Shown here one piece after another: positions 11,516 to 40,665 of a stretch of DNA of 64,000 nt. The position numbers were made by a program, and so were the translations under genes. Each line of letters opens with the position of its first letter. Positions within the stretch are counted from its first letter, which is position 1. The stretch comes from a virus (lineage: Duplodnaviria; Caudoviricetes). The notes under the pieces are model-generated. The model had not been told where the DNA came from and ran no database searches. It was given only the letters and a program-made list of their open reading frames with translations. The stretch covers positions 21,611 to 85,610 of IMG/VR virus record IMGVR_UViG_3300022555_000031; one strand, 5' to 3'.

Positions 11516-13223
11516 GCAACTCCCACCTTTAACCGAGGAAGAGATTAAGGGGGCCAAGGAGATGGCTGAGGCCATCTTTACGCCGTCTGACGGGAGGACT
11601 CCAGAGGAGTGGATGGAGGACCTGTTCACTCCAGTTAAGGAGCAGAAGATAGAGGCGACGCCAGATGAACTTGGGGCTGAAGTATTGGCCACAGTCAGCC
11701 CAGAGACATTCTCCAAGTATTACTTTAATCAGACATTGTTTGGCAACCAGGTGGATATGGTGAAGGCCATTCTGGACCCAGTTATAAGGAAAGTCGAGAT
11801 AGTGGAGCCGAGGCAGGTGGGAAAAACGTCGGCGATTGCCACGGCATCTGGCATAGCGTTGGAGCAGTTGGGCACAGAGTATAATGAGGTCAGTCCGAAC
11901 GAACCATATAGAGTTGGTATCTTCTCTCCTAAGTTGGGGCAGGCTCAGATAGATGTTAATAGGTTGAAGAGATATTGCGAGCGGAATAAGAAGGCGTATC
12001 GCTTTGTCAATTGGAACGAAAGTAATTCCACCAAGTTGGTGTGGCATAATGGCTCAGAGCTTCATGCGGTATCGGCGAGTGAGCAGGCGGAAACAGAAGG
12101 TCAAACGTTCAATCTAATCATAATGGAAGAAGCCCAGAGGATATCCGATTACTCTGTCTCGGAAAAGATACTCCCTATGGGTGGAGCGACTGGTTCAAAG
12201 ATAGTCAAAGTCGGGACCGTGCGTGCGGTGCGTAATCATTTCTGGAAGTCATGGCACGACCCGCAACAAGGATATCATAAAGTTTCACATACCTGGATGA
12301 CCTGTCCCAATCTCCTACGTGGAGGATGGTTAACAGCCAATATAAATGGGGACCAATTGAAGTTGTCCAGGTATGTGATGGATAGGATGCCGTTGTCAAT
12401 CAAACAGCAACTCTATCCATCCAACCCAGAGTTATGGACGCATGGGGATATGGATGAAGCCGACTTCAGGACGCAGTATTTATTGGAGTGGCTGGAGACG
12501 CATGGCCTATATCTTACGGAGCGAGAGAGAGAGCTACTGATAGGGACCCATGAATTACAGACTGGGCACGTGGGCCAGGAGTATCTTGTGGCGGGGATAG
12601 ACTTCGCTGGTTCGGATAGCGATAACGCCGATGAGACTTCTATATCAGTATTGAGGGTCACCAACGCAAAAGTTAAAGAGAAGATATGGGGGTGCACGTT
12701 TAGGGGTGACCCGATGTCCCAGTTGCAGGAGATAGTAAACATCCTGCATCCTTATGTGGGGAAGTTCAGGCCGAGGAAGATTCTTGCCGACGCCACTGGG
12801 ATTGGATTATATCCCGTAGCCCAACTGAGGGCATCTGGCCTGCCAGTAGATGGGATTAACTTTGGGGCCACGGAGCCCGACAGTGCGTTATCTGGATTAA
12901 GCATGAACTATAAGAATGCCATGTGTTCGTATACGAAGTCCGAGATAGATAATGGGAGATTTAAGTATGCAAAGAAACAGCAGTATATTATCCCAGAGAT
13001 GAATGTCAACTACCACAAAGGATTGGACCAGTGGTTCGACCTGGAAGTAGAGAACACGGATAGAATCAACAAGCAGATAGGGCATGCCGACGGAGCCTAT
13101 GACGACGTAGTGATGTCGGATGTGCTGGCAGTATTCGCAAGCAAGACCGAGAGGACCATCCTCCCGCAGAGGAATCAAATGAATTCAATCAGGGTGGCAT
13201 TTGCACACCCAGGGATACGATAA
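11502..13223 (+). CDS. terL: terminase large subunit
   Basis: Walker A PRQVGKT, Walker B LIIMEEAQ, coupling motif VGT, RNase H-like AGIDFAG and DDVVMSD. Confidence 0.92.
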   Translation: MMENEQLPPLTEEEIKGAKEMAEAIFTPSDGRTPEEWMEDLFTPVKEQKIEATPDELGAEVLATVSPETFSKYYFNQTLFGNQVDMVKAILDPVIRKVEIVEPRQVGKTSAIATASGIALEQLGTEYNEVSPNEPYRVGIFSPKLGQAQIDVNRLKRYCERNKKAYRFVNWNESNSTKLVWHNGSELHAVSASEQAETEGQTFNLIIMEEAQRISDYSVSEKILPMGGATGSKIVKVGTVRAVRNHFWKSWHDPQQGYHKVSHTWMTCPNLLRGGWLTANINGDQLKLSRYVMDRMPLSIKQQLYPSNPELWTHGDMDEADFRTQYLLEWLETHGLYLTERERELLIGTHELQTGHVGQEYLVAGIDFAGSDSDNADETSISVLRVTNAKVKEKIWGCTFRGDPMSQLQEIVNILHPYVGKFRPRKILADATGIGLYPVAQLRASGLPVDGINFGATEPDSALSGLSMNYKNAMCSYTKSEIDNGRFKYAKKQQYIIPEMNVNYHKGLDQWFDLEVENTDRINKQIGHADGAYDDVVMSDVLAVFASKTERTILPQRNQMNSIRVAFAHPGIR

Positions 13224-16200
13224 TGAATAACGTTATGACAACAGCTAAGCTATATAAGTTCTTCGCCAACAACGATGACCTCAGTGTTTTCACTAACACT
13301 GCACTGTGGGGTGGCCCAAAATTTGTTAAAATGGGTAAGTTGCCAGAAGATGATTTACACCCAGGCAGGCCCCTGTATATAATGGCTAACTACAATGTAA
13401 GCTTTGAGCATGAAGGTTTCGAATTGCTTCCAGAAGAAGAGCGGGAGAACATTCTTGACAACGCCGTGATAGAGAAGGTGCTATCGTTGCCGAGTAAATG
13501 GGATGCTATCTGGGTGTATCATCATGATACGTTTGAGTGTATTTATAAGGAGCCACAGAACATCTTGTTAAGGGAAGGTATGAATAAAAGGGCAGATGGC
13601 GAGCCAGCTATCTTGCGTGGCGGTATGCTGTCAGTAGAAACTTTAGCCTATAAATTCTTCGATAGTGAGGAAGAGGCAAAGGAGTGGGCATGGGGAGGTC
13701 GGGCAAATGTTCGTCCAAATAATACATATGAGGGTGTTGGTACGGGATGGACAGCGGTTCGGGGTTATGACTGGAGGGTCTTTGTTCCCGAGGGATGGGT
13801 TACCCCAGGGATAGTGGGCGATGAGCTACATCCGACCAACGTGCAATTACTGTGCGAAGAAGTGCGTAAGGGATTCAGTGATGCTCCCGAGGAAGCGTTG
13901 TGGGACGAGGTGAGCGTTAGGTCAGGCGTTCCATCTGGCAATGGTAAGTCTTGGATAACGGTTCCAATGGAACCACGGAACATATTACTCCGAGAGGGCT
14001 CATTTGAAACAGACGCAGTAGTAGAGATAAGGGAGATAGAGAAGGAAGGGGCACGGGGTATATCAGTGGAAGGCGAAGAGAGTAATGAGAATGGAAGCTA
14101 CCGCCTCATCAAGATGATTTATCCGACGTCTATCCAGAGGTATACGAAGGGTCAGTTCAGGTGGTGTGTCTGTAGTCCAGAAACGGCAGAGAGAATGGGG
14201 ATATCCAAGGAGAAGCCGTTCTATGTGATAGAGAAGAACGGTCAACCATATGTTGCGTGGATAGATGGGGATGAGTATGTGTTTTCTGGATATAGTGGTC
14301 GCATCCCCATGACCCTAAGACAGTATAATGAGCTGAGGGAGCTGAAGACCTTTACCGTCCCAGAGATTGTTTTTACTGAAGAAGAGAAGGCTCGGGGGGC
14401 TATATCTTGCCACGATTTTACACAGAAGGACTACACTTGGGAGGAAGAACGTGATGAGAACAATGCCAAGGTTGACGCCAAGTGGGATGATGCCGATAGG
14501 GAGTTTATGACCCGTCAATGGAACCGCTACTGGGAGAGGCCCAAGGAGAATTACGCTCAAGCACAAGGTATAGAGAAGGAAGCCCTGGGCGGAGTAGAAA
14601 TGCACCCCTACTGGATAAGCAAGAACAACGAGTTGATTGATGTGAAGGAGTGTGGCGGGCATGGGTTCGTGTGGGAGGTTTCGGAAGAGGCTAAGGAAAC
14701 CACAAGGGAACATGTCGGCCCCCTTGGGGACGGTGTCGACATAGATGCAATCAGGGATACACTATTGATGCGGGGATGGGTTAGGATGGAGACGGTGTGG
14801 AAGTCTCTTATGTTGCAGGCAGAAACTGTCGAGAGCTTATACGATACCTACCCAGTGTGGAGGGAGTTTATTAAAGGTGACACAAGGTTCTTAATAGAGA
14901 TTAACGAGCCCCATAAGAGCTACGACCCCGTGAACCAGTATGAGTTAGAGGGGCACGGTATGAACATTTTTGACTATATAGGGAATGGTGGCGAGTTGGT
15001 GGATAACGAGACCAAGACGGCGAGTGGCGGTTACTCAGTAAAAGATATAGTGAAGGTGATGAAGGCAAGAGGAGAGAATTGTAGGGACCAGTGGGAAGAG
15101 TGGTATGGGTCAAGGGACGGCGGGAGCTGGATAATCGCTCCCAACGGAGATTGGTTCCCAGTGTCTCAGCATCAGGATTTCGAGGATGAGATGCGTGAGG
15201 AGTTTGGTATTAAGTGGACCGACGAAGATGAGGAGTGGATACGTGTAGCAGGTGGCCCGAAGGTAATAGCCTTCGGAGTACCGTTTGGGCCAAACAACCT
15301 GGAGAGGATAGAGAGGTTTATATCAGAGGTTTCACTCAGTGGGAATACTTTAGTTACAGACGGCAAGAGAGAGACGACAATAGAAGATGTCATAGAAGAT
15401 GGCTTAGTGAGTGCGTTGATGGGAAGAAGGTCAGCGAGCATAGGGAAGAAGGCCAGAGGAGAGGACGAGAAACTTGAGAGATACGTAGAGATGCTTGGCA
15501 AGTTCCTGGTGGAGGATTTGGATATCCGCAGGCTGGAAGATTGGGAAGATAGCGTGCGTAGTTGGTGTCAAGGCAGATATCTGCAGAACGCAGATTTTGA
15601 TGTAGAAGAGTATCTGCCACAGGAAGACTTAATATTGTGGCGGATATATTATTATCTCGTAAATGGCGACACGGTTATCGCTGACTGGCATGACGTTTAT
15701 ACCAAGAGAGCTATCACAGAGGCCCTTTGGCCGTATCTTGTGCCTGGAGTGCCAGACAGGAAAAACATATTCTTTGACAGTGATGGGAATTTGTCTACTG
15801 AGAATATTCAGATGTCGAAGCTTGAAGCCTACACGGATGAGCTTCAAATGGATGCCGAGCAATCAGCGTTGGACTACGGGTTCAATATCAACGACTACCT
15901 GGACCAATTTTTCAGTGTCAGTGAAGACGAGGGTGCGTTAGAGAAGCATGAGTTCGCCAGATATCTTCTTGGCAAAGACAGTTACAATCCCTATGAGGAT
16001 TTACCTGAAGAGAAGGAGCTGACCAAGAAGTTCTTCCAGGAGTTCAGTCGTGGTGGGATGAATATACTGGAGAGGGAAGGTAGGGTTAAGACTGCGATGA
16101 AATGGAACGGAGAATGGGAGCCTGTGGAGTGGGAACCCTTGGACGGGATGAATGAAGCTGTTAGGTTCCGTATTGCCGAGTCGGTGAGAGCAGGAGAGCT

Positions 16201-16954
16201 TGCTGGCCATATAAAGTATTACCGTGATGAAAACACCTTGGAGTATGTTGAATGGTCGCTCAATCGGGCCCTCAATAATAGATACCAAGCCTTTACGGAA
16301 ATCAGGGATGGTAAGAATAGTGGCGAGGGTTGGGAATTGGAGTGGATAGCCTCTTTGGGAAGAAGGGAGTCAACAAATATCCTCCTGAGAGAAGGAAGTA
16401 TTAACAAGGTTGCAGGGATGGAGCAGGCTGATGCACTCGTGAAAGGTGTGACACGGGGTGGACATCGTATGCTGATTCGCAAGGATGATGATGATGATAA
16501 CATAGAGATAGGCATTAGCTATGACCTGTGGGAAGAGGTTAAGAGGGATTACCTTGACGACAATATTAACATGACACAGATGTTTAACAAGTGGGTTCCT
16601 CGGCTTTGCGGTGTCGGGTTAACAATCCCAAGGGAAGATTTATATGGTGTCCGTATCATGACAACATACTTTGTTGATTTTTCCAATGACCATATCATGG
16701 AAATTAACATGTCGGTGGATGGGGCTAATGTACCCAGGGCCTGTTACGATGTGCCAAGCTTCAGGGAGGGCCTCGACTTCACTGACATATTAGACGCCAC
16801 GGGCTCAGAGAGTATCGAGGCTTGGTTGAAGGGTAAAGTAGAGCCGTTGAACATATTGTTAAGAGAGGGTTCTTTTGAACGAGATGCCATAGTAGAGATT
16901 AGGGAGGTGTCGGATGAGAGTGGAACGAACGGTTTGGCAGTGGTTAATCAGTAA
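13223..16954 (+). CDS. modular polyprotein A (1243 aa; 5 NILLREG-type junctions), putative internal head/ejection cargo
   Basis: Motif starts at 13559, 13979, 16061, 16376 and 16850; start overlaps the terL stop. Confidence 0.7.
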   Translation: MNNVMTTAKLYKFFANNDDLSVFTNTALWGGPKFVKMGKLPEDDLHPGRPLYIMANYNVSFEHEGFELLPEEERENILDNAVIEKVLSLPSKWDAIWVYHHDTFECIYKEPQNILLREGMNKRADGEPAILRGGMLSVETLAYKFFDSEEEAKEWAWGGRANVRPNNTYEGVGTGWTAVRGYDWRVFVPEGWVTPGIVGDELHPTNVQLLCEEVRKGFSDAPEEALWDEVSVRSGVPSGNGKSWITVPMEPRNILLREGSFETDAVVEIREIEKEGARGISVEGEESNENGSYRLIKMIYPTSIQRYTKGQFRWCVCSPETAERMGISKEKPFYVIEKNGQPYVAWIDGDEYVFSGYSGRIPMTLRQYNELRELKTFTVPEIVFTEEEKARGAISCHDFTQKDYTWEEERDENNAKVDAKWDDADREFMTRQWNRYWERPKENYAQAQGIEKEALGGVEMHPYWISKNNELIDVKECGGHGFVWEVSEEAKETTREHVGPLGDGVDIDAIRDTLLMRGWVRMETVWKSLMLQAETVESLYDTYPVWREFIKGDTRFLIEINEPHKSYDPVNQYELEGHGMNIFDYIGNGGELVDNETKTASGGYSVKDIVKVMKARGENCRDQWEEWYGSRDGGSWIIAPNGDWFPVSQHQDFEDEMREEFGIKWTDEDEEWIRVAGGPKVIAFGVPFGPNNLERIERFISEVSLSGNTLVTDGKRETTIEDVIEDGLVSALMGRRSASIGKKARGEDEKLERYVEMLGKFLVEDLDIRRLEDWEDSVRSWCQGRYLQNADFDVEEYLPQEDLILWRIYYYLVNGDTVIADWHDVYTKRAITEALWPYLVPGVPDRKNIFFDSDGNLSTENIQMSKLEAYTDELQMDAEQSALDYGFNINDYLDQFFSVSEDEGALEKHEFARYLLGKDSYNPYEDLPEEKELTKKFFQEFSRGGMNILEREGRVKTAMKWNGEWEPVEWEPLDGMNEAVRFRIAESVRAGELAGHIKYYRDENTLEYVEWSLNRALNNRYQAFTEIRDGKNSGEGWELEWIASLGRRESTNILLREGSINKVAGMEQADALVKGVTRGGHRMLIRKDDDDDNIEIGISYDLWEEVKRDYLDDNINMTQMFNKWVPRLCGVGLTIPREDLYGVRIMTTYFVDFSNDHIMEINMSVDGANVPRACYDVPSFREGLDFTDILDATGSESIEAWLKGKVEPLNILLREGSFERDAIVEIREVSDESGTNGLAVVNQ

Positions 16955-17513: not shown

Positions 17514-17758
17514 GGATGAGGCCGTCTATGGATAGTGGGTCAGTAGAGACCCGCAAGGCAGAAGCCCGTAAGATGATTTACGATGTCCTCGACCAGGATA
17601 GACAGGTATTTATTGGCGAGGTATTCGTTAACACAGGCATCACACCGCAGGAAATCAGCGAGAAGTTCATTATCAACGAGACAAGAATGATAACGGATGC
17701 CGACAAAGACGGGTACGGTTACAACGTAGAAGCCCGTGTCAGGCTGGTGAGGAAATGA
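17510..17758 (+). CDS. hypothetical protein
   Basis: ATGA overlaps at both ends suggest a start at 17510. Confidence 0.55.
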   Translation: MRMRPSMDSGSVETRKAEARKMIYDVLDQDRQVFIGEVFVNTGITPQEISEKFIINETRMITDADKDGYGYNVEARVRLVRK

Positions 17759-20700
17759 CGGAACAAGAGATAAATAAAATATGGGAGTTGGCCAGGAGCG
17801 TTAATCACAGCTTCCAGGTGAACCTGAGCTTTGAACGTGATGGTTCAGATGAAAAACAAATCAACATCTCTGCTGATATGGCGGAAGAACTGCGTAAAGA
17901 CCTTCTATCTGGGGATTCCAAGGAAGAGGTCTACGGGAGATGGTATAACAGAATTCCCACCAGCAGGGCTCTCCCGAGTAGCGGAGTTGTCTTTTTCAGT
18001 CTGCACGAATACTACCACATCAATCCGTCTGCTGGCATATACGAGAACGTGAACTACTGCCTATGCACGGGATATACACGGGAAATCCCAGGGCGTCTTG
18101 TGGATGTTGGCCCATGGATGTTCAGCACGTCACCCAGCAGATTCAGAAACTTACTTACGCAGTATGAAAGAGAGTATGGGAGGGATAAGTTGATAGATTT
18201 GTTAAACAGGCTCGCCTCGCAGAACATTCTGTTGCGTGAAGGTAGTCGAAAGGGTGCGGAGAAGCTTATTGAGAAGGTAAAGTGCGAGCACCAGTTGACA
18301 GTCACAGACGCCACCAATGATGATTCATGGGCCTGCGTGATTGATAGTAGCCTGTTCAAGTTAAAGGAAATTGAGGCCGACTTTGCGAATGGTGACCTCG
18401 GTGCCGACGGGATGGTGCAGAAGTGGTGGGATTTGCTTGGGGGAAGTGACGAGCCTACAGACGTTGAGAGTATTGAAATTATCAAGGTATACGATGTGAC
18501 GCTTAAAGACGGAGACCTGATTCAGATGTTTTTTAGTTTCAATGGGGAATATTATGAGTGGGTGGATATGGATACGTCGGGTTGTGGTGAAGACAGCGAT
18601 GGAGAAATATTTCAAGACGAAATAGATAGGATGAGCGATATGGCAAGGATACAGATGCTGGACAGTTTCCTTGAAGGAGAGAACATCTTGCTACGGGAAG
18701 GTAGCCGAAAGGGTGCGGAGAAATTGATAGCATGTGCAGAGCGTAGCCACCAACTCTTCATGGAGAGTGAGGAGTATGGTAAAGAGTGTTGGGAGGTGGG
18801 CAACGACTTAATAGGCGACGTAGAGGCCGATTTTAATAATTTAGATATAGACGGTGATACGTTTGTGTTGAAATGGCGTGGCCAGCTTGGCGGGGATGGG
18901 GTGAGGCTTAATACCGACACGGTTAAACTGTTCAGGAAATATAACGTGACATTCCAGGATGGGGGCTCGTGTTGGATTACTTTCGTACGTAAGCTAAACA
19001 GGCCTGAATACGGGGGACCCATTACAGACGCAGTTTACGGTGGTGGCGATGTGGCAAAATTTGAGAGGCACATACAGAGCATGTCGGACTCTGAGATAAT
19101 AAATATGTTGGATGATTTCCTTGAAGGCGAGAACATCTTATTAAGAGAGGGAAGTCTCAAGGGTGCTGATAAGTTGATTGACCGTGTAACCCGCAAGCAC
19201 TACTTGGACCTGGAGGGCGGTTTTGGTGCAGATTCTTATGACATAGAGATTGGTAGCGGGTCGTATCTTGAGGTTGTTGCTGATTATCTCAATGACAACG
19301 TTACCGTGGGAGACCTGATAGGTAAGTGGTGGGGCCCGTTGACTGATAAACCAAAGCCCGAAACACTTCACCTGGTCGGCAGTATCGGCGTGCAGAAGGT
19401 GTTGGATATCCGTGTCAAGGATGGGGGGTTGGTAAGGGTTACCTTGGAGTTAAACAAAGTAAGTCAATGCTATGAGCTTCTCCGTGTAGACGAGATGGTG
19501 CAGAGTTTGGACTCGAATAGTTTGCTGGACGAGATGGAGGAGGTACCCAATAGTGAGTGGCTTTTCTTGTTGGTCCCAAAGATTGAAGGAGAGAATATCT
19601 TGCTCCGTGAGGGCATGAACAAGAGAGCACAACTGGATAGTTCCCATATTATGGACGTTAAGCGGAATAATCGGATAGAGGTTATGGTGGGCGACGGCGA
19701 AGATAGGGGCGATTACACTGAGTGTAGCGATGATGAGTTCAAGGAGTTGCTTGCTGACGTTTCTAATAATTCTATAACCAACGAGGACTTTTTGCGGAAA
19801 TGGTGCCCGAGTGTCCCAGGGGAAGAGGCGTATGATTTGAATATGGCTATCTACTCGGAGTATTGCATCACATTTGCAGATGGCGGAGAGATAGAGTTCT
19901 CGCTGAGGTATATGGGGCTACAGGACACGAATCTGTGGAGACTACATAACCCAGAGGTCCATGTTGCGTCGGACCAGTCCAGTGCGTTCATGGATTACCT
20001 GACGAGGCCAGATATGGGGGCGGTAACTTATTCGAGGATGATACCAAATGAAGATGTGGAACAGTTGAACAACCTTTGCGGTGGGACGAACATATTACTG
20101 AGGGAGGGCACTCTGAAGAAGGCCGATAGCGTGGCGTCAATGAAACGGATGGACGAGTTGACCAGGTCTGTGACTTGCGAGAGAACGTTTGAGGTGTTGG
20201 CCCTGAACGCTGATAATCCCTCTCGTGAAGGTAGCTTGGACAAAAAGGCCATGAACACACTCCAGGATATGGAAGGGGTTGTGGCGTGGGTATCGCACAA
20301 GAATATCCTTTACTTACTTCCTCTGAACGGGGACTTTGGCATAGAAGTTGAGATACCAGACAGCCTGATACCAGACATTCTGATAGATTTTTCGAATGGC
20401 AACCTCAGTCAACAAGGGATAGCAAGGACATGGTGGCCCGACTTATCTGGTGGGGAGCAGGTGCCAGAGAATGAAGGTTGCAGACTCATCTCTCAGTATG
20501 CAGTGGAGATGAGCGATGGTGGTGCGTGCACGGTGGAGTATGTATCCGCCCCAGGCTTGGATGGGCATAGTGTGCATAGGATTACAAAAGAATCTAATGA
20601 CGCTAATGTGTTCTATGATTTAATTTTTAATTATAAAGACAGAGAAGTTTACGAGTGGCTGATTGATAGGGTAAGTGGGAAGAACATTTTGCTAAGAGAG

Positions 20701-25806: not shown

Positions 25807-25812
25807 GATATT

Positions 25813-25839
25813 TTGTTTATTTGCCAAATATGCTATAAT
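25813..25839 (+). promoter_or_regulatory. extended -10 promoter
   Basis: TG-C-TATAAT at 25831-25839 in an AT-rich intergenic gap; GGAGG RBS at 25861. Confidence 0.55.
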
Positions 25840-25871
25840 ACACACAAAGGGAATATATCTGGAGGACTCCT

Positions 25872-26168: not shown

Positions 26169-27149
26169 ATGGCATTCACTCAAGACACTACGAAATTAGG
26201 TGACAGGCCAGTTACGCTTGTCGCACAGCTTTATGACTCCGTTACACAAACCCACAAAGTAGTCCCGCTCAGATGCAAAGACAATGGAGACGGGTCATGG
26301 TCGATGGATATTCAGGCGACCATAGAGACTGGCGATATAGAAATCGGAGCGGTTGAATTAAAGGACGCAGGCTCAGATACGAGAGTGAAAGTAAAAACCG
26401 ATGGGACAGATAACGCCCTCGTGGTGATGCAGAATAACGGAGCAAAAGAAACTGGCGGTAACCTCGCAAGTATAAAAACAGATGTAGACAAAATCCCATC
26501 AAAGGGCACAGCGACGATGGTCGGCTCGATGCCCGTTACGATAGCTACTGATGACACACTCATGTCGGCAATGAAGGCCGACTTAGATAAGATACCTTCC
26601 TCGCCCGCAACTGAAGGCGGCAACCTGGCGACCATAGCAGGAAAAGATTTTGCAACACAAACGACCCTGTCTGCGTTGAACGCAAAAATCCCAGCGAGCC
26701 CAGCAACTGAAGGCGGTAATCTCGCAACGATTAAATCCAACACAGACAAACTTGACACGACTTTGTCAGCATTGGCAACGGCTATAGCAGGAGCGACTCC
26801 GAAGACACTTGCAGATGTAGTATCGGCAATCTCGGGGATTAGTGTTGGAGGAAATAAGATTACTCCAATAATTTCTGTAGTGGATATGACGACACTTGGA
26901 ACAGAATATTCACAAGCACTACCTGAAGGATGTAGTGGATTTACAGTTCAGTTGAGGGAAGATAGTGGTATTCTTAAGATAGCTTTTAATACAGGAGATA
27001 TAGCGGCGGGCACTTATATTACTGTTAAGGCTGGAGGCTCTTGGTCAGAAGATGGAGTGAATTTGACGGGAAAGACTTTGTATCTTGTCAGTGATACAAA
27101 TGCTGTCAATGCAGAAATTATTGCGTGGGCACCAGGAGGGTTAGCATAA
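26169..27149 (+). CDS. putative virion fibre/decoration protein with internal repeats
   Basis: Three ATEGGNLA[T/S]I-type repeats; Ala/Thr-rich coiled stalk; beta-rich C-terminus. Confidence 0.55.
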
Positions 27150-30220: not shown

Positions 30221-30337
30221 ATGATTAAAGGCGGAAAGCATAGCGAGGAGACTAAGAGGAAAATGAGTGAGGCTCGCTCTGGTGAGCGTAATGCTTTTTA
30301 TGGAAAACGACATACAAGTGTCTTGGTCGGGAAGTGA
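30221..30337 (+). pseudogene. NUMOD3 motif remnant of a homing endonuclease
   Basis: Translated by hand: MIKGGKHSEETKRKMSEARSGERNAFYGKRHT. Confidence 0.65.
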
Positions 30338-30338
30338 G

Positions 30339-33300: not shown

Positions 33301-35498
33301 ATACGTTGGTTGAATGCCACCCTAATCTGGCGGACAAGATAATTGAAAGATGGAATAACGGGGATTATGATGAGGCGGACGCCAAGACCATATTGCAACA
33401 GTGGGTGTCCAAGAAAGTTGTCAATCCGCTTAATAGGATTGGTGGCAAGATTCAAGTAATGGTAAGGAAGGCTGGCTGGGTAACTGGCGAGCCTGCAGAG
33501 GTTGTCGTAGAGACTGCCTTCGCACTCTGGCTTGAGTCAGACGAAATCCGAGACATCGTTGCCGATATCGTTAAGATTAACCCTGGATTAAAAGAACAAG
33601 AGAGCAGGGATGACCTTGAACGCCAGGTGTTCGACCGCATAGAAAATATGCTCCACGAGGAAGCCAGTAAGAAGCTGAGTGGAGTAAGGGAGATAGGGAC
33701 CGACTACGATTTCGATATCAACAAACAGGAAGTAGGATACATTATAAACGAGGTAGTTAACACTCCGCCAGAAGGTGAAGAGCCGAAGACAGTAGTTGAA
33801 GCCAGTGGCAAGAGGTCGTGTAAGTATTACGAGACCTGCGGTAGCCCAGCGAACTGCCAGGCGTGTAAGGGTGGGTATGTGAAGAAAGAAAAGAGGGCGG
33901 AGTTTGGTGCTTATTATTCCGTTTGGGATAACCAATGTAACACTTGGCTGGCAACTGGCAGTAATAGTGATACTCGTGAAGAGGCGATACGTGATGCTTT
34001 TGAGTATATAGTCAGTGGCAGTGATGACTATAATGAGGCTGATTATGCGGGTTTTACATTGGAGGACATGGAAAACGAATTGAGTGCCTATGAATACGAG
34101 GTAAAACGGCACGTCGGACGGATAAAGGATAATGCGTTGGGGCTTGCGGGAGAGGAGGAGTTTGGTGGTAGGGCGACAAAAGAAGTCCAATTGGATGCCG
34201 AGAATATTCTGCTGAGGGAATCATCTTTAAGCAAAGAATCCAGGAGCAATTACGATGTTATAGAGGCGTTCATTGCCAACAACTTTCCAGAAAAAGACGG
34301 GTGGGGAACGAGACATTTGTATGTTATGCAAGAGAGGGGTGGTTGGGCGTTGGTCAACAACTATTCAACCCCGATAGTTTTTAGGAGGGATTCTGACGGT
34401 AGGATGTTTTTTAATACTGATAAATATTCTGTAACTACGAGCAAAATACAAACTTTTATCCGCAGGGAGTTGGAGCAGGCAGGGGCTACTGCGGATTTGG
34501 TTGACGAGGAAGGCATTAAGATGGCAATAAGTGGTGAGATAGACCCCGCCAATATTCTACTGAGGGAAGGCGGGGGGAATAGGCATATTGGCTGTGACTG
34601 TATAGCGTGCAGGCTTGGGTTGAATGCTAAAGCTAAAACGGCTGGAGAGAAAGAGGAAGCGATTACAACTACACTTGACCAGCTTGGCCCTGGTGATAAG
34701 TTTGCGTTTGTAACGGAGCCAGAGAAAGTATTTGTCTTGATAAGCAAGGACGACACGGTTGGATATTTGGTGCAAAGAGAAGGTGGCACCAAGAGAATAC
34801 CGCTTGACCCTGGGGTTGGGAAGAAGCAGGTATTTTGGTGGGGTGGGAAGGATGAAAGTGCTTCCCCAATGGCCGAGGGTGGAATGGGCGAAGGCGAAGC
34901 CCAGCAGGCGGAGAATGTCCAGGAGTCTGCTCCTGAGCCAGAGAAGGAAGAGGCCAAGAAGCCAGAGGCAGTTACAACCATACTAAAGAAACTTAATAAC
35001 GGCGACAGATTTGCGTTCGTCAAAGACCCTAAAAAGATTTTTGTCTTTATGTCTGGCGAGGAAGGTGTTGGATGGATAGTGAATAGTGGTGGGCCCAACA
35101 CCCTTCTTAAATCTGAAGTCGGAGATGAGCAGGTGTTTTTGTGGACTGGCGAGGAAACAGCTCCCAGTGGTGGGGCCAAGCAAGAACAGCCAACCCAAAA
35201 GAAAGAAGAGCCAGTTGAAGAAGAGGGATGGCAGACCGTTGGAGACATGGAGATAGGGGATAGTTTTATTGAACAGGGTGGTAAAACCAGGATGACGATG
35301 ATAGGTATTTACCCCCAGTATGATTTTTATTTCTGGGTAGATGCAGATAACCAACCGCATGTGAGCGAGATTCCAAGGGTGAAAGACATAAAAGTTAAAA
35401 AGATAGGGGCTTATAAGGTTGAGCGGGCGAAGGAGCTCGCTAAGATTCACAAGGACTATTTACAGGCATTGGTCCAAGAGAAGTTGGGCAGACAATAA
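30339..35498 (+). CDS. modular polyprotein C (about 1720 aa; 5 junction motifs)
   Basis: Motifs at 30768, 32826, 33174, 34203 and 34551; start moved to 30339, after the NUMOD3 remnant. Confidence 0.75.
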   Translation: MPTKTIQITLLDSLGPTRQSSFWYDGIVAISTNCKVVAEGELRVVFKPDKAYIGVSAVEKAMDLGLDDDTLPNAIGAFVYSNWYEVQPVTNIARDIVPTELDNIVEGDDIESIKEALIFWENEIADQEGYTPEFVFRGFQDDRNILLREGGATMPRIAKEGMVSRVDQRFDREAELIAQGTTITIQADGEPKMLSVSQRKTDNGFEYEAHDVLTNEKIKVASVEQVKTLYALQSLIEQCFGLGKESAKVADLAQQALLNLYGLPEFKEKYKPLQADKVAETGYAHNILSQVYSDAELEKIIALRHNVDKDLALLKEIALYLRKEVYAQVAYMATKMTQQLHDSGVDVDEACKTVMDVYGAFDKMLDGDNPIGNKRVGIIEFGVRHYYVSVDRKAEYDGIIKNLEDSAQLVIRLVESGLAYDEIVTELEKANDGKPLPSSSRAIALLNNIFPEKKWSQMFRGGLANYQFIRTGESIGSISEGDKIVIKHKDLDVMKGVVKWIDEEANVVRVETEFVGAEDRGTMMHDFNYYEFMKKVDEKEIVKTAWGEGKHYKLTLSPVVPEGYGDLFATQEQNEEHFRYTTMRRYLDVNDLGSGPNYVYFSEKILPKIMRVLERDVAKGNVDSDSVLLEQVVGGGSEVAESWHGWDEIKGMGKIAMMKEADLRMAYFVNHIPVGGKYPICACMENRRGYTQHMTNSYDTLEEAEAEADRLNEEMGISKKDSMTIVLRSMGAGNRPIIDKPEAKYTVIIDDTGLRDSEMEMLHEFIGGQFGETPYGTIEGQVFEGKLESLIMALEKLVKAKKIGKDVILNSEEGEWKGLREIKKRFKVQTTLEREGAVGLGNVRFIIDWWGDDEDNDIDLADLIDMLDNAEVEYPDEEDIGECMVVRGEIIPDGSKIGELLHKLGLYEVSGKVQNDGVTAKYNGMGYNGLRTIREAYKSGNLEPQNILEREGKVVRTASRPIKRDWAVSMVRGRDLVGVYFADTDGCDTLVECHPNLADKIIERWNNGDYDEADAKTILQQWVSKKVVNPLNRIGGKIQVMVRKAGWVTGEPAEVVVETAFALWLESDEIRDIVADIVKINPGLKEQESRDDLERQVFDRIENMLHEEASKKLSGVREIGTDYDFDINKQEVGYIINEVVNTPPEGEEPKTVVEASGKRSCKYYETCGSPANCQACKGGYVKKEKRAEFGAYYSVWDNQCNTWLATGSNSDTREEAIRDAFEYIVSGSDDYNEADYAGFTLEDMENELSAYEYEVKRHVGRIKDNALGLAGEEEFGGRATKEVQLDAENILLRESSLSKESRSNYDVIEAFIANNFPEKDGWGTRHLYVMQERGGWALVNNYSTPIVFRRDSDGRMFFNTDKYSVTTSKIQTFIRRELEQAGATADLVDEEGIKMAISGEIDPANILLREGGGNRHIGCDCIACRLGLNAKAKTAGEKEEAITTTLDQLGPGDKFAFVTEPEKVFVLISKDDTVGYLVQREGGTKRIPLDPGVGKKQVFWWGGKDESASPMAEGGMGEGEAQQAENVQESAPEPEKEEAKKPEAVTTILKKLNNGDRFAFVKDPKKIFVFMSGEEGVGWIVNSGGPNTLLKSEVGDEQVFLWTGEETAPSGGAKQEQPTQKKEEPVEEEGWQTVGDMEIGDSFIEQGGKTRMTMIGIYPQYDFYFWVDADNQPHVSEIPRVKDIKVKKIGAYKVERAKELAKIHKDYLQALVQEKLGRQ

Positions 35499-36278: not shown

Positions 36279-36313
36279 TTCATTAACAAATTCCATATAA
36301 GGAGGGTAAAAAT

Positions 36314-36538: not shown

Positions 36539-36548
36539 TCATTTGATA

Positions 36549-36574
36549 TCTGGGGGAGGACACCCTCCCCCAGA
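36549..36574. terminator. GC-rich intergenic hairpin (terminator or processing site)
   Basis: Perfect 11-bp stem TCTGGGGGAGG/CCTCCCCCAGA with a 4-nt loop; no strong U-tract. Confidence 0.5.
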
Positions 36575-36591
36575 CATACTACAGGAGACGA

Positions 36592-39500
36592 ATGTCTATA
36601 CTGCTGAACTTACATACAGCCGAGGAGCAACTTAAACTTTTTGACGACTCACCTGGTAAAGGGGAAGTTAAAAAGGAAGAGAAGCCCCAGGGTCGAGTAG
36701 GCTTTAGAGCAGACTGGCAGAGTATTTGGGACGAGCAGGACGACGCAATGTATTCCGAATACTTCGACTGGCATTCAACCTTACCAGCTTGGCTCTCCAA
36801 GCAGTGGATAAGGCGTTTTGTTATTAAGGAAGACGGAGAGCAGTATCCTATACAGATGCTTGAACGTATGAGCGATAAACAGTTGAGCGGTATGTTCAAA
36901 CGTTACTATGGGGATGCGTTGAAGGGTCAGGTCCATACGGCAAAGAGAGAAGACAGTCTCGAGCCGACTCTTGGCGGGGACCTGGGGTCTGAGCAGGGTA
37001 TTCCGCTTGTTAATTTTCATTCAGAGGAGGATGCGGAGAGGTTCTTAAATGCGACCAAGGGGCTCAAGTTAAACTTTCATTGGGAAAGACAGGGCCAGGT
37101 TGTTGTATTAAACGACCCAAGGTTTGGAAGCACAGAGGTTAAGTCTTATGTAAAAGGATTCATAGACCCCAACGAAGAAACTTCATACCTTGCTGGCCAG
37201 GATATGCAGATGATGGCTGAAGCTGTGGGGAAAGTAGAGAAGACGGCCAATCAAAAAATGACCAGTAGCAGTGCCTTTATTATGCCCAATGGAAGATTAC
37301 AGCCAGTGTGGTCGCATGAAGGTTGGCTTGCTGAGCAACACAGAGAGTTAACCGAGATGCTGGACGCTGGATGGATACGGATATCCACGATGTCTCCACA
37401 GGAAGTTGGCTTGGAGTTCAGCGTATTAGATGATGATTCTGCTGAAAGAATAGAGAAGTTCTTGAAGGTAAATTCATTCACTGTCGTAACAGTAGATTGC
37501 ATGGACGGTGTCAAGCAGTTAAAGATAAAAGATATTCTTCGGGACGGGTTCTGGACTGCCTTCAGGAAGGCTGAAGAGGGCTTTTCGTATACAGACGAGT
37601 CCCTTCGCTATAAGCCTTACCAGCCCCAAGAGGGTGTCGGCACGGACAGAATCCTTCCCCCGTTTGCCAGTAGACATACAAATATGACCAAGACTGCCCT
37701 GTTTGCGGGGAGTGGAGTAATCGACCCCAAGGGAAATTTCAAGACCGTTTTCACTCATGACAACTTCGCAGAAGAAATGGGCATGACTCCGCAGGAAGTT
37801 CTGAAGGCGGGATACGTTAGAATATCTGTTTACTCACTGAGACTTGTGGGCGTACAGTTCTGGGAAGAGACGCCAGAGATTTTGATGCGGATAGACAACT
37901 TCCTTGTGGAGAATCCGTATCGGAAGGTGAGGGTGGAGGTCGCAAGTAAGGAAAATACTTACAAGGAACTTTCTATTGAAGACATCCTGGACTTTGGCTT
38001 CGAAGGGGCCCTGCACGGGAAGGCTAAGGACAGGGAGTGGCTACCAGGTGCACGGAAAGAAACATTAACGAAGAAAGCTGACGGTATATTTGAATATGAC
38101 CAGAACGCTATGGATGCGATGTCGGACGGCTCAAGGGGTCAGCAGACAAGAAGCATAGAGTATCTGCCACAGGACCAGAAGCAGTGGTGGCTGGAATACC
38201 TGGAGAAGGGCAAGAAGAACTTCCCAGGGAAAAAAGATACGGTCCCGCCAGAGAGTGAAGAGGGTGGCGTATCGGTGGCGGGTAAGAACGCCAAAGTAAA
38301 GACCGCAGGGATAAACTTCGTGGGCAACTATGTGTTTTATCCTGACGGCAGGTTTGAGTTTTATAAGGCACAAATAGATGAGCATGTAACCTATCCAGAG
38401 AACTGGCTCGAGTGGGACGATAGAACGTTTGGCCAAATGATGAGGGATGGTGCAACTATAGGGACCTTGTGGGCCCGTATCGATTACGGGTGGGATAAAG
38501 AAAAGGACATCGACCTTGGTATCATCACCTATGACCTTGAGGTGAGGAACCATCGTGGAGATTTATCCGATGAGCAGGTTAAGAAAATCATGGACGCCTT
38601 TGGTATAACGGCCAGACCAAGGACAAGAGACAGGGGTGGCGAAGAGATAGTAATGCCCAAGGACGAAGCAATAAACTTTATCAACGGCAGAATCAACATC
38701 CTTCTGCGTGAGGGAGCAAAGAAACCTAAAGGCCAGAGGGATGATGTTGGGGCGGAAGAGCAAATATTAGAATACATAGAAAACGCATCCCGCTTTGCGG
38801 ACCAGGGTAATGCTGGTATGTTTGCGGGAGCACTCTATCAATTGATGGGTGGTGGCAAAATTTATGTCATTATGGATGAAGCTGGTGACGTTTATAATGT
38901 GGCATTCTTCTATGAGGATAAGTTTTACGACATGATGGGTATTGTGACCAAGGAAGAGCTACTGGACTCGTTCCAATATAATGGAGATGTTGATGAGAAC
39001 GGCGTGGGCGTTAAGATGGATTTGGTGGAATGTAATTGGATGGATGCGGAATACGCCATGCCGTATGCTTCAGCGTATATGGACGAGATAATCTCGGCCA
39101 TGATGGGGCAGGAGAGTGTCGCAGAAGAGGACGACTGGCGGAAGTCTTATAATAAATACATGGGGGAATACAATAAGTGGCAAGGCGAGTATCCCGAATA
39201 CTCGTCAAAAGATTGGGCGAATTATAAGTATGAACCGCCTAAAGACGAGGAGATTACCCTGGAGTCTTTGTATCCAGATATCATGCAAGACCTGGCTCCG
39301 ATATTCCAGCAATACGGAGTTGGCCAGGATATTTTGAACGGGTTAAAAGTCATCAAGACCCATGTATATGCTCCGTTCTACGCTATCATGGAGAAGCAGA
39401 CGATAACTTTGTATTCGCTGTTTTTCGGGCTCCAGGAGCCAATCCGTAAGGCGAAACTGCTTCACGAGATTGCCCATTATATCCAGGAGAAGACTGGGAC

Positions 39501-40665
39501 TGATTGGGGCACAGAGGAAGAGATTAAACAGGCGATTCAATTGGAGACCGACTACAAGGAACGCAAGATAACACCCAAGGAATTCTTTGAGATATACCTT
39601 GCGTATCCGCATGAGCTGAAGGCCTATAAAGTCGAAGTTGACTATCTACGCAGTCAGGGCATGGCTGATGCACAAATAAAGGAACAGCTGATGGCTGACC
39701 TTACGGCGGACAGTGAAGCTGTTATCGACAGGATTCTCCAGCAGGCCAGCATGTTTGGGTTCACCAAGAAAGCCAAGAGGCAGATATACAATGGGATAAC
39801 GTGGGAAGAAGAGTATACCCCGCTGTTGCCGAAGAAGAGAAACTTCTATAGATGGGTTGGACATATGGGGGATGGGTTTACTCATAGATATGTGATTCTG
39901 AGGGCGGATGTTCCGACCCTGGAGAATGTGGCCAGGGTGGTTGCTCAAAAGGTGGATTCGGATTCTTGTCCGTCTGCGAAATATTTCCAGGACCTCCAAG
40001 AGGCCATTGATTTTGTTGGTGATAATTTTGGTATAGATGTAAGCAACGTAAGACTGACCCCCGTGTCTGCGGGGATATCTCGTAGGGACAGGGATATTAT
40101 CGGGTATAAGTTGGTCAACGATATCTCAAAAGCCCTGGAGGATACGACATCTATTCTCTCCCGTGTGGACATGTTTATCGGTGGCAAGTTTAACGAAGGA
40201 GAGAAAACTCCGACAATCTTCGCCCGCTTCATAGAAAATAGTTGGTCAGAGGATATAGCGTTCCTTAAAGGGTCTCTGGGCGGGGCAGAAGACATGCACA
40301 CTTTTATTAAGAATATGTGGCAAAGGTTTATACCTCAGAGTTGGAAGCGTGATAACTATATAGTGAAGAATAAAGTTATCCCGATGGCGAATAGATTGCT
40401 CGATAGCGGATTGACGGCGAATGAGATTCGTGCCGAGTTGCAACGCATTGCCCCAAACAACTATTTTGTGCGGGCCATGATTGAGCATATTATTTACACC
40501 GAGATAGACCCAACATTAGAGGGCGACAAAGAGAATAAAGATGTTGATATAGACGCTGAATTATCGGAAGCATTAGAGTATAATACGAATGACACGGCCC
40601 ATTTAATGCCGTTACACGATATGCACATCCCAGGGCACCGTGAAGGAATAATAGGGGAAGATTAA
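36592..40665 (+). CDS. modular polyvalent-type protein D (1357 aa) with a zincin-like metallopeptidase module
   Basis: One NILLREG (38695); many KxA junctions; LLHEIAHYIQ...PHELKAY. Confidence 0.7.
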   Translation: MSILLNLHTAEEQLKLFDDSPGKGEVKKEEKPQGRVGFRADWQSIWDEQDDAMYSEYFDWHSTLPAWLSKQWIRRFVIKEDGEQYPIQMLERMSDKQLSGMFKRYYGDALKGQVHTAKREDSLEPTLGGDLGSEQGIPLVNFHSEEDAERFLNATKGLKLNFHWERQGQVVVLNDPRFGSTEVKSYVKGFIDPNEETSYLAGQDMQMMAEAVGKVEKTANQKMTSSSAFIMPNGRLQPVWSHEGWLAEQHRELTEMLDAGWIRISTMSPQEVGLEFSVLDDDSAERIEKFLKVNSFTVVTVDCMDGVKQLKIKDILRDGFWTAFRKAEEGFSYTDESLRYKPYQPQEGVGTDRILPPFASRHTNMTKTALFAGSGVIDPKGNFKTVFTHDNFAEEMGMTPQEVLKAGYVRISVYSLRLVGVQFWEETPEILMRIDNFLVENPYRKVRVEVASKENTYKELSIEDILDFGFEGALHGKAKDREWLPGARKETLTKKADGIFEYDQNAMDAMSDGSRGQQTRSIEYLPQDQKQWWLEYLEKGKKNFPGKKDTVPPESEEGGVSVAGKNAKVKTAGINFVGNYVFYPDGRFEFYKAQIDEHVTYPENWLEWDDRTFGQMMRDGATIGTLWARIDYGWDKEKDIDLGIITYDLEVRNHRGDLSDEQVKKIMDAFGITARPRTRDRGGEEIVMPKDEAINFINGRINILLREGAKKPKGQRDDVGAEEQILEYIENASRFADQGNAGMFAGALYQLMGGGKIYVIMDEAGDVYNVAFFYEDKFYDMMGIVTKEELLDSFQYNGDVDENGVGVKMDLVECNWMDAEYAMPYASAYMDEIISAMMGQESVAEEDDWRKSYNKYMGEYNKWQGEYPEYSSKDWANYKYEPPKDEEITLESLYPDIMQDLAPIFQQYGVGQDILNGLKVIKTHVYAPFYAIMEKQTITLYSLFFGLQEPIRKAKLLHEIAHYIQEKTGTDWGTEEEIKQAIQLETDYKERKITPKEFFEIYLAYPHELKAYKVEVDYLRSQGMADAQIKEQLMADLTADSEAVIDRILQQASMFGFTKKAKRQIYNGITWEEEYTPLLPKKRNFYRWVGHMGDGFTHRYVILRADVPTLENVARVVAQKVDSDSCPSAKYFQDLQEAIDFVGDNFGIDVSNVRLTPVSAGISRRDRDIIGYKLVNDISKALEDTTSILSRVDMFIGGKFNEGEKTPTIFARFIENSWSEDIAFLKGSLGGAEDMHTFIKNMWQRFIPQSWKRDNYIVKNKVIPMANRLLDSGLTANEIRAELQRIAPNNYFVRAMIEHIIYTEIDPTLEGDKENKDVDIDAELSEALEYNTNDTAHLMPLHDMHIPGHREGIIGED

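Follow-up and report, generated by a model that had tools for sequence, protein, structure and literature searches.

A near-invariant NILLREG peptide punctuates the products of five head-region genes in a relative of Bacillus phage G and may mark processing sites

In an uncultured phage related to the giant Bacillus phage G, a short peptide, NILLREG or a variant of it (hereafter the tag), punctuates the products of five head-region genes. NILLREG is best explained as a linear recognition peptide that is read at the protein level, and the best explanation for the tag itself, to which we assign about an even chance, is that it is a processing site. The tag would mark endoproteolytic sites in the products of these five late genes, such that processing would yield about 30 individual acidic products with masses of 9-81 kDa. 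We infer cutting at the tag, as well as the bond that is cut, the enzyme responsible and the packaging or delivery of the products to the host. Coordinates refer to the window, the whole 64,000-nucleotide stretch of DNA that was analysed, except where the 85.6-kb contig that contains it is specified.

A six-frame search identified 29 in-frame NILLREG-type tags, all on the plus strand and all in five ORFs. The tagged genes are part of the head-morphogenesis block and are flanked by the large terminase gene on one side and the portal and protease genes on the other.

13223-16954, plus strand: polyprotein A, 1243 aa; five tags, starting at 13559, 13979, 16061 (NILEREG), 16376 and 16850, and six segments of 28-695 aa.
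17755-25806, plus strand: polyprotein B, 2683 aa; 17 tags, starting at 18223, 18682, 19132, 19594, 20089, 20212 (DNPSREG), 20683, 21154, 21655 (NILEREG), 22183, 22636, 23221 (TTLEREG), 24145, 24565 (PPLLREG), 24952 (ALAVREA), 25291 (PTILREG) and 25771.
25872-26156, plus strand: gene C0, a 94-aa stand-alone zinc-ribbon module; one tag, NILTREG, at 26094.
30267-35498, plus strand: polyprotein D, 1743 aa; five tags, starting at 30768, 32826 (TTLEREG), 33174 (NILEREG), 34203 (NILLRES) and 34551, and segments of 117-687 aa.
36592-40665, plus strand: protein E, 1357 aa; one central tag at 38695, with halves of 708 and 650 aa.

The tags comprise 18 exact copies of NILLREG, five with a single substitution (NILEREG three times, NILLRES and NILTREG once each) and six degenerate versions, all at module ends (TTLEREG twice, PPLLREG, PTILREG, DNPSREG and ALAVREA). 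The first-pass annotation had counted about 28 copies in five ORFs, 23 of them canonical; our total is slightly higher, and 23 copies are of the N-I-L-x-R-E-[GS] type. Arg and Glu are present in all 29 tags and are followed by Gly, Ser or Ala, the tag-final Gly being found in 27 of the 29. The residue two positions ahead of the Glu is Leu or Ile in 21 and Glu, Thr, Ser or Val in the other eight. Conservation ends after the Gly. The first tag of each protein is 75-702 aa from the N-terminus, and tags are internal or C-terminal. Roughly estimated from amino-acid frequencies, about 1e-4 exact copies would be expected by chance. A relaxed pattern, [ILVMT][ILVM][LETQ][RQK]E[GAS], matched 27 times in the whole 85.6-kb contig, always within the five tagged ORFs; one of these matches, LVQREG in polyprotein D, is probably due to chance. 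The relaxed pattern had no match in a further ~21 kb downstream on longer contigs of the same phage, and no tag was found outside the five ORFs in the ~107 kb of phage sequence read.

The 18 exact copies are encoded by 18 distinct 21-mers, which in pairwise comparison are on average 72% identical in nucleotide sequence. The 23 N-I-L-x-R-E-[GS] copies together draw on all six codons for Leu, five of those for Arg and all three for Ile, and DNA repeat finding detected only degenerate similarity of 25-46 nt at 61-87% identity. Because all of the exact copies differ as 21-mers, we conclude that selection acts on the peptide rather than on a DNA repeat, as had been proposed from the first reading of this DNA.

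The tag was also said to close each module, including the last modules of ORFs 17755 and 25872. We found that polyprotein B indeed ends with NILLREG followed by KKID, and that C0 ends with NILTREG followed by a 13-aa basic tail; polyprotein A has a 27-aa tail after its last tag. The proposed module length of about 150 aa held for polyprotein B, in which a ~155-aa alpha/beta domain is repeated in 12 of the 17 segments (151-177 aa), but not for ORFs 13223, 30267 and 36592, which also contain tag-free multi-domain segments of 300-708 aa. ORF 25872, previously listed among the polyproteins, is instead a single zinc-ribbon gene whose Pfam matches are to zinc ribbons only and are weak. Copies of the ~155-aa domain are 20-32% identical to one another, with an invariant tag beside them. 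Segment A5 of polyprotein A belongs to the same family, and the remaining modules, which are unrelated in sequence, are closed by the tag as well. The ~155-aa domain is new, and its predicted fold had no match in PDB or BFVD. No Pfam family was detected at E<=0.5 in any module, and no module matched a Pfam or PHROG family of known function. Polyprotein A had no Pfam or PHROG match and polyprotein D had no Pfam match, residues 700-758 of the latter matching one PHROG of unknown function. For module B15, language-model searches gave leads to PARP/Arr clusters with scores of 0.91-0.93, a level of recognition under the tool's usual bar, such that the link to ADP-ribosyltransferases is a weak lead. 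An identical protein E is encoded on 11 contigs, the longest of 122 kb.

The residues preceding the tag are rich in Gly, Pro and Glu and thus linker-like. In an AlphaFold2 model of a single module the domain had a pLDDT of 86.7 and the tag a pLDDT below 50. In a model of two modules (pTM 0.46) the internal tag, at residues 150-162, was a coil with a pLDDT below 50, and the domains folded separately on either side of it. The models place the tag in an unstructured linker, both at the end of a module and between independently folded domains, and not within a fold. These models bear on the possibility that the tagged proteins are beads-on-a-string chains, such as internal head or fibre components, in which the tag would have a structural or spacing role, conserved for the packing of adjacent modules and serving neither processing nor targeting. 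Conserved linkers in tandem domain arrays are common among structural proteins, and the modules, all of which are acidic (pI 4.0-6.3), might suit one shared physical role. However, the modelled tag made no contacts and had no regular structure, and the arrangement of the domains was not fixed. Moreover, the tag connects folds that are unrelated and occurs at gene ends as well, and the 300-708 aa multi-domain segments have no tag at their internal domain boundaries. We consider a spacer role quite improbable.

If the tag is a processing site, the likeliest cut is after Glu, between RE and G, because [R/Q]-E-[G/A/S] is the most conserved core. The cutter would be a Glu-specific phage protease, and our first choice is the assemblin/gp21-like prohead protease encoded ~20 kb downstream of the tagged genes, which would act inside the prohead as T4 gp21 does on the internal proteins and Alt.

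60616-63999, plus strand: prohead (head-maturation) protease with a long scaffold-like tail; phrog_18299, 3.6e-12.

This ORF is cut off by the end of the window and encodes 1563 aa on longer contigs (full length on L008). The first-pass annotation had described a spliced protease. The gene is indeed interrupted, but by an intein with a LAGLIDADG domain (Intein_splicing, LAGLIDADG_3), so that splicing would occur in the protein and not through an RNA intron. The N-extein shares 39% identity with phage G gp19 and is related to jumbo-phage genes annotated as 'prohead core protein protease', while no Pfam family, Peptidase_S77 included, matched the protease at E<=1. The ~107 kb of sequence contained no recognizable protease of the chymotrypsin-like type.

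Several features bear on whether this protease would read the tag. The R-E-[G/S/A] core would suit cleavage after Glu ahead of a small P1' residue, which is how the specificity of T4 gp21 and of the phiKZ and SPN3US proteases has been described. In contrast, seven near-invariant residues far exceed the three-residue rules of gp21, gp175 and gp245, and what would be the P3 residue is Glu, Thr, Ser or Val in eight of the 29 tags. In T4 and phiKZ-like phages, the portal, protease-scaffold and capsid proteins are cut at the protease's common site. In this phage both the strict and the relaxed tag are missing from the portal, from the 1563-aa protease-scaffold protein and from the two capsid-protein exons, and the link to the prohead protease thus rests on analogy. 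The earlier proposal that NILLRE is a prohead-protease site is in keeping with the core, the head-gene context and the linker position of the tag, but it is weakened by the absence of the tag from these head proteins and by a papain-family alternative considered below. A pure separator role is also at odds with tags that have only 0-27 residues downstream (in A, B, C0, E and F) and hence nothing to release. However, released modules would keep ...NILLRE at their C-terminus, and the tag may double as an address or handle, which would explain the tags at gene ends.

Possible degenerate tags were found at the end of protein E and in other ORFs.

40633-40647, plus strand: C-terminus of protein E, GHREG plus 5 aa.
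40690-44370, plus strand: protein F, 1226 aa, ending exactly on the tag's Gly.
44347-44367, plus strand: possible degenerate tag NLLPQEG, the last seven residues of protein F.
50115-50171, plus strand: two REG-[ML]-I-R-[RK] peptides, possible degenerate junctions in ORF 49440-51941.
55083-55100, plus strand: possible degenerate junction LPRREG, followed by AKKPK, in ORF 53379-55625.
11453-11470, plus strand: VSLREG, 14 aa from the C-terminus of ORF 9722-11515, which is directly upstream of the large terminase gene.
3543-3560, plus strand: NRLREG, 23 aa from the C-terminus of ORF 3198-3632, which is directly upstream of a papain-family peptidase gene.

The LPRREG junction is 170 aa ahead of the C-terminal zinc-ribbon/DUF5661 part of its ORF, and the sequence REGAKKPK is common to this ORF and the tag region of protein E. 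Three further ORFs contain LREG, each time 12-23 aa from the end, compared with 0.04 such cases expected (~5 in 10,000 by shuffling). The tag is at or near the C-terminus in at least five gene products (A, B, C0, E and F), with 0-27 residues following. The end of protein F on Gly fits a mature ...G terminus better than a cut between Glu and Gly.

The sole comparative case is P0010, a distant stand-alone homologue of 185 aa on a 1.1-kb contig. It consists of a 17-aa leader, TLLEREA, a module, TLLEQEG and a 6-aa tail, and the two variants are in register with the tags. Only L-L..E-[G/A] is kept between the P0010 lineage and this phage. The leader ahead of the N-terminal tag looks like a propeptide.

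The prevalence of tags at C-termini raises the possibility that the tag is an uncut docking peptide for a common partner, such as the capsid interior, scaffold, portal or a chaperone, in analogy to the C-terminal peptides that load cargo into encapsulins. The polyproteins would then be multivalent cargo or structural chains. Tags at or near the ends of at least five products, the C-terminal LREG sequences in three further ORFs, the Gly-, Pro- and Glu-rich linker ahead of the tag and seven conserved residues that suit a binding epitope are all in line with docking. Yet one tag per chain would be enough for loading, while B has 17 located exactly at domain boundaries, and the tag of P0010 near its N-terminus follows a propeptide-like leader. 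We judge docking unlikely.

Returning to the tag as a processing site, the same architecture and cutting could be read by another enzyme. A cut made in the cytoplasm, or once the proteins have been delivered, by a xylellain-type papain-family (C1A) cysteine peptidase is possible though unlikely.

3644-4498, plus strand: xylellain-type papain-family (C1A) cysteine peptidase, 284 aa, intact; Pfam Peptidase_C1, 3.4e-12.
39463-39477, plus strand: HEXXH segment of protein E.

The C1A peptidase would cleave after L-R; Leu would be the P2 and Arg the P1 residue, a cathepsin-like register. P2 is the main specificity determinant in the papain family. The peptidase matched PDB 3OIS (entry title: Cysteine protease) at 1.7e-47 over residues 10-281, and its Cys, His and Asn motifs (GACTAF, SHGV and RNSWG) align with those of 3OIS. 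In addition, head proteins normally cut by the prohead protease are without the tag, the gene directly upstream of the peptidase gene ends with NRLREG plus 23 aa, and tailed phages are known to have acquired xylellain-type C1A genes, which are without an assigned function (PMC10380794). Against this reader, what would be the P2 residue is Glu, Thr, Ser or Val in eight of the 29 tags while R-E-G is invariant, and Arg is replaced by Gln in the TLLEQEG of P0010 and at the end of protein F with E-[G/A] kept. The peptidase gene is also 9 kb away, outside the head block, and LR756511.1, the only scanned phage genome with a clear C1A homologue, had neither ILLREG nor a module homologue. Less likely readers than the C1A peptidase are the HEXXH segment of protein E and a protease in the unsequenced remainder of the genome. 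Zincin-type processing has been proposed for phage polyvalent proteins (PMC5512222). However, the HEXXH segment had no Pfam or PDB sequence support, by our estimate about one HEXXH is expected by chance in this much protein, and protein E showed no similarity to phage G gp2 peptidase.

Papain-type peptidases also expose the C-terminal Gly of polyubiquitin-type precursors. By analogy, the tag could be a ubiquitin-tail-like handle, in which a papain-family peptidase would free ...L-L-R-E-Gly and a ThiF/E1 enzyme would activate the Gly and join it to a target, conceivably the capsid interior, host proteins or defence proteins. The tagged proteins would resemble polyubiquitin in having head-to-tail modules without spacers, a conserved tail ending in Gly and a last copy capped by a short tail, and a ThiF/E1-family protein (contig positions 6684-7817; Pfam, 8.7e-20) is encoded on the contig along with the papain-family peptidase. 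Polyubiquitin-like release would explain the short capping tails and the end of protein F on Gly, and, if true, it would mean phage-encoded conjugation of many different modules via one shared tail. In contrast to polyubiquitin, the modules are not beta-grasp domains, Glu rather than Gly precedes the tag Gly, and no E2 or JAB protein was found. The ThiF protein matched PADLOC E1-E2 models at ~1e-11 over the nucleotide-binding part only; its gene is 28 kb from the polyproteins, and the ThiF and C1A genes adjoin neither each other nor the polyproteins. We regard conjugation as highly improbable.

We found no published description of tag-punctuated phage polyproteins of this sort, and the known systems resemble them in part. 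Potyvirus NIa and the 3C-like proteases of picornaviruses and caliciviruses recognize sites of 6-7 residues, in which P1 is Gln or Glu and P1' is Gly, Ser or Ala. RNA-virus polyproteins yield many products from one ORF, as the tagged genes would, but there is no homology and the present case is a dsDNA tailed phage. In T4 the internal proteins are diverse and have only a capsid-targeting sequence as a common feature (PMC3012670). T4 IPI-III and Alt, which are encapsidated and act as anti-restriction or takeover factors (PMC3012670, PMC9026906), are thus similar in being diverse, fast-evolving proteins with one short conserved peptide in common. The Glu-specific cut of gp21 with a small P1' residue is compatible with R-E-G, and here too head-module genes occur with a gp21/assemblin-type protease. 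However, T4 uses one N-terminal sequence of ~10 aa per separate gene and a three-residue rule, whereas the tag has seven near-invariant residues, is C-terminal to modules, with up to 17 per ORF, and does not occur in the phage's own capsid, portal and scaffold proteins.

The phiKZ gp175 and SPN3US gp245 systems (PMC10052503, PMC7411985, PMC5694885) also involve giant phages with many head proteins, including paralogue families, and multiple cuts per precursor; the SPN3US protease cuts several motifs within head-protein propeptides (PMC10052503). Those cuts differ in removing N-terminal propeptides of separate products under a loose S/A/G-x-E rule, with no module chain released, and those proteases also cut themselves. 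The polyvalent proteins of phages and conjugative elements (Iyer et al. 2017, PMC5512222) are likewise very large and built of many modules; it is predicted that they accompany the DNA and that a peptidase divides them into separate products. They have 2-15 or more domains, and the proteins described here have up to 17 tag-delimited segments. None of the polyvalent-protein domain families (zincin-like MPTase, ART, ParB, methylase and helicase among the repertoire) was detected here, the ART lead for B15 being weak. Moreover, polyvalent proteins are not known to bear an explicit, repeated cleavage tag, and the present tag is found across several genes, one of which encodes a single module.

If the tag is a processing site, a dsDNA phage would use the polyprotein strategy of RNA viruses, with a private seven-residue code through which a few genes would yield about thirty proteins in fixed proportions, and modules could be added or swapped by keeping the tag. 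The twelve strongly diverged acidic domain copies look like a family under diversifying pressure, for which the T4 internal proteins would provide a precedent as injected anti-defence factors. The tag is also brief, strict and portable, and it could be put to practical use, either with its protease as an orthogonal cleavage pair or as a giant-phage peptide for loading capsids.

The NILLREG peptide, which the first-pass annotation had described as closing the modules of a series of polyproteins, occurs as 29 in-frame tags, all in the ORFs that begin at 13223, 17755, 25872, 30267 and 36592. Eighteen tags are exact, five carry a single substitution (NILLRES, NILEREG three times, and NILTREG), and six degenerate versions are found at module ends (TTLEREG twice, PPLLREG, PTILREG, DNPSREG and ALAVREA). 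A relaxed six-residue pattern had no match outside the five tagged ORFs, whether the remainder of the contig or the additional sequence downstream was scanned. Arg and Glu are present in every tag, and the next residue is Gly in 27 of the 29, Ser in one and Ala in one. At the DNA level, the 18 exact tags are 18 distinct 21-mers with a mean pairwise identity of 72%, and the 23 N-I-L-x-R-E-[GS] copies use all six Leu codons and five Arg codons. Repeat finding showed that the tag regions share only degenerate similarity over 25-46 nt. Thus, a DNA repeat or recombination site was ruled out as the conserved unit, and the earlier proposal that selection acts on the peptide was borne out by the varied codons and the degenerate DNA similarity.

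The window is the final 64 kb of one 85.6-kb contig of phage DNA with 47% G+C, in which almost every gene is on the + strand. The large terminase gene is followed by the five tagged ORFs, several large ORFs lacking a functional annotation, the portal gene, an intein-bearing gene and the head-maturation protease gene.

Genes of the window referred to in the text
3644-4498, papain-family (C1A) peptidase
11502-13223, large terminase (basis: PHROG and Pfam Terminase_6N)
13223-16954, tagged polyprotein A
17755-25806, tagged polyprotein B
25872-26156, tagged ORF C0
30267-35498, tagged polyprotein D
36592-40665, tagged protein E
40690-44370, protein F
56252-58438, portal, carrying an intein
from 60616, head-maturation protease, with an intein that contains a LAGLIDADG domain

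The closest cultured relative is Bacillus phage G (portal 39.5% identical; protease gp19 39% identical), which has the same terminase-to-portal layout and no tag. The same phage is also present, identical or at 97.6% identity, in public metagenome assemblies whose contigs reach 122 kb (another is 99.6 kb long); the runs and assemblies concerned are ERR4193103, ERR4194899, ERZ27245625 and the BUCK21-1 set. These contigs allowed us to read approximately 21 kb past the window end. This region encodes a complete 1563-aa protease-scaffold fusion, the capsid protein, and neck and tail genes. The capsid protein (Pfam Phage_capsid_4) is apparently divided by an inserted LAGLIDADG gene; on one of these contigs (L008:17171-19107) the interrupting ORF is a LAGLIDADG_2 homing endonuclease, probably within an intron. 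Selfish elements are dense in the head genes generally, with inteins in the portal, the next gene (58767-60434) and the prohead protease (60616-63999). The head-gene block also contains a 472-aa protein (51941-53359) with a minimal CRISPR polymerase (mCpol/Cas10 palm) domain (Pfam, 2e-18; PADLOC CARF_HEPN_mCpol, 7e-12). Two genes without the tag lie between polyproteins B and D (26169-28636); the second has a long collagen-like Gly-x-y run, encoded by a 9-nt periodic DNA repeat at 28006-28376, and then a globular C-terminal part, and is possibly a fibre.

Splitting the polyproteins at the tags gave 33 pieces. Twelve of these (B1-B5, B7-B11 and B17 of polyprotein B, and A5 of polyprotein A) are diverged copies of one domain of about 155 aa; the copies are just 20-32% identical to one another, and the tag beside them is invariant. 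The remaining pieces are not similar to this family and scarcely resemble one another; some are multi-domain stretches of 300-708 aa that contain internal repeats and no tag. Because the domains of these stretches are not separated by tags, the tag is not merely an inter-domain linker but would delimit products. All of the sizeable modules are acidic (pI 4.0-5.6). A Pfam search of all modules matched no family, and one piece of polyprotein D matched a PHROG of unknown function. Segment A3 (13997-16081) and the N-terminal half of protein E (36592-38715) have a domain of about 100 aa in common (30% identity) that by eye is repeated within each translation without tags between the copies. Module B15 (24583-24972) gave language-model leads to PARP/Arr-type ADP-ribosyltransferase clusters (scores 0.91-0.93), which are weak and lack Pfam support. 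In a 97.6% strain variant of 23327-25951 (contig L006), two indels, a deletion of 16 nt and an insertion of 1 nt, would disrupt polyprotein B at sites outside the tags, reflecting either assembly error or real decay, and a substitution cluster lies right after the PPLLREG junction (24591-24633).

AlphaFold2 predicted a small alpha/beta fold for the 155-aa domain (pLDDT 86.7). Foldseek found nothing at E<=0.001 in the PDB and BFVD, and exhaustive structural alignment against the PDB gave no match either, its best hit reaching Z 4.6 with an rmsd of 6.0 over 77 residues. In the model of a single module, the tag and the residues beyond it had pLDDT values below 50 directly after the last confident helix. 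Since this could be an end effect, two consecutive modules were also modelled. Both domains folded independently (pLDDT approximately 70-87) with no defined inter-domain arrangement (pTM 0.46), and the internal tag (residues 150-162) was again coil at pLDDT below 50. These two models give no support to the tag being part of the domain fold, and one outcome that the first-pass annotation had named as fatal to its proposal, a tag built into the structure of a repeat fold, was not seen in silico.

We next consider the residues around the tag. The three preceding positions are rich in Gly, Pro and Glu, and conservation falls immediately after the tag: among the 27 tags with complete flanks, 12 are followed by Ser and the others by Ala, Lys, Met, Arg, Thr or Gly. 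A weaker x-K-x-A follows downstream. As the residue following the tag varies in this way, autoproteolysis at G|S was ruled out. A sortase-type or CTERM sorting signal was dismissed on the grounds that the tails lack a hydrophobic segment. The tag bears no resemblance to 2A-like ribosome-skipping sequences, for which we know of no bacterial precedent. Separately, [KR]-[KR]-A is about 3-fold over-represented in the large head-region proteins of 13223-55625 (ORFs A, B, E, 49440 and 53379), with, for example, 7 observed versus 1.7 expected in ORF 49440 and 6 versus 0.8 in ORF 53379. It often lies downstream of the tag as REG-x-x-K-[KR]-A and might be a second processing site. ORF 53379-55625 also has a duplicated peptide, TIGMPRKA, a C-terminus with a zinc ribbon and DUF5661, and an 8-mer, REGAKKPK, in common with the tag region of protein E.

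Judged from sequence searches, the tagged module system is rare. An exhaustive profile search with the 155-aa domain among 1.84 billion representative proteins gave only four real matches: two fragments of the same phage, P0010 (185 aa) and P0013 (338 aa). Seven giant matches were tandem-repeat proteins that lacked the tag and aligned over short stretches, and these were discarded as spurious. P0010, which lies on a 1.1-kb contig (assembly GCA_052915985.1), is a complete gene that stands alone and consists of a 17-aa leader, TLLEREA, a domain with 34% identity to B17, TLLEQEG and six final residues. The two peptides align in register with NILLREG, such that only L-L..E-[G/A] is constant and Arg can be replaced by Gln. 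This one protein provides the best comparative evidence that the peptide may be a functional signal at both module ends, and that the core of the tag would be Glu plus a small residue. P0010 as query matched only itself. Among 5.8 billion proteins, polyprotein B had no homologue and protein E had only an identical protein. No match was obtained with tblastn of D, E and F or megablast of B against 50,697 phage records, with terminase, E and F in viral contigs, or with a back-translated pattern of two tags at module spacing in IMG/VR or JGI metagenome contigs. ILLREG is absent from phage G (497 kb) and from uncultured phage LR756511.1 (595 kb), and the latter has no module homologue. Relatives of the portal are 53-66% identical across most of the protein and could be read up to 10 kb upstream only; they are uninformative on the tag, since the corresponding 10 kb is tag-free in this phage too. 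Literature searches found no match to the peptide and, on phage polyproteins, only the works cited here.

The tag also occurs at the ends of genes. Only 27, 4 and 13 aa follow the last tag of A, B and C0, respectively; protein E ends in GHREG plus 5 aa, and protein F (1226 aa and otherwise tag-less) ends exactly in NLLPQEG. Outside the tagged genes LREG was observed three times versus 0.39 expected, in each case 12-23 aa from the C-terminus (shuffling chance of three such copies about 5 in 10,000); one of these ORFs is directly upstream of the terminase and another directly upstream of the papain-family peptidase. At the end of a gene, a tag that served purely as a separator would have no use. 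Either the tag would also be an address or handle that stays with the product, or the few residues capping the C-terminus would need to be removed. These gene-end tags are the basis of an alternative in which the tag is left uncut and is bound by a common partner, and also of a reading in which a C-terminal Gly, once exposed, would serve as it does in ubiquitin-like systems. We assign the latter a low probability: the contig encodes a ThiF/E1-family protein, but an E2 or JAB protein was not detected, and ThiF genes have a scattered distribution among unrelated phages. The ThiF/E1-family adenylyltransferase gene (6684-7817 of the 85.6-kb contig, upstream of the window) and two ORFs of unknown function are flanked by Mre11/SbcD-like phosphoesterase and Rad50/SbcC-like genes (2665-10046), and a sliding-clamp gene is next (12011-13153).

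If the tag is cleaved, the prohead protease is our first-choice candidate, with modest confidence. It is encoded by this phage and is broadly of the right kind, and the tag is compatible with published T4 and SPN3US cleavage, which occurs after Glu and before a small residue (PMC3012670, PMC10052503). However, the tag is absent from the portal, protease-scaffold fusion and capsid protein, and 8 of the 29 tags lack Leu or Ile at the would-be P3 position; both findings count against this protease. The papain-family peptidase offers a second candidate. It is an intact xylellain-type cysteine peptidase (PDB 3OIS, 1.7e-47, catalytic motifs aligned), and L-L-R|E-G would be a natural target for cleavage in a cathepsin-like register. 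Such a register would, however, put the least conserved hydrophobic position of the tag at P2, and P0010 and protein F have Gln in place of Arg. Tailed phages have acquired genes of this type, with no role assigned to them (PMC10380794); this one has clear homologues in only three phage records, including a 595-kb uncultured phage and jumbo Burkholderia phage FLC9. The HEXXH of protein E was rejected as a zincin because it had no Pfam, PDB or Atlas support and was not similar to phage G gp2.

The best explanation of these data, to which we give about an even chance, is that the tag is a protein-level processing tag within flexible linkers. The first-pass interpretation is partly supported: its peptide-level selection holds and the tag is predicted to lie in an unstructured linker, whereas its proposed link to the prohead protease is weakened by the tag-free head proteins. 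For each known family compared, some defining features are absent here or only putative. It resembles RNA-virus polyproteins in logic and polyvalent proteins in their predicted processing (PMC5512222), and in working it would be closest to the T4 internal proteins and Alt, together with the processed ejection proteins of phiKZ-like phages.
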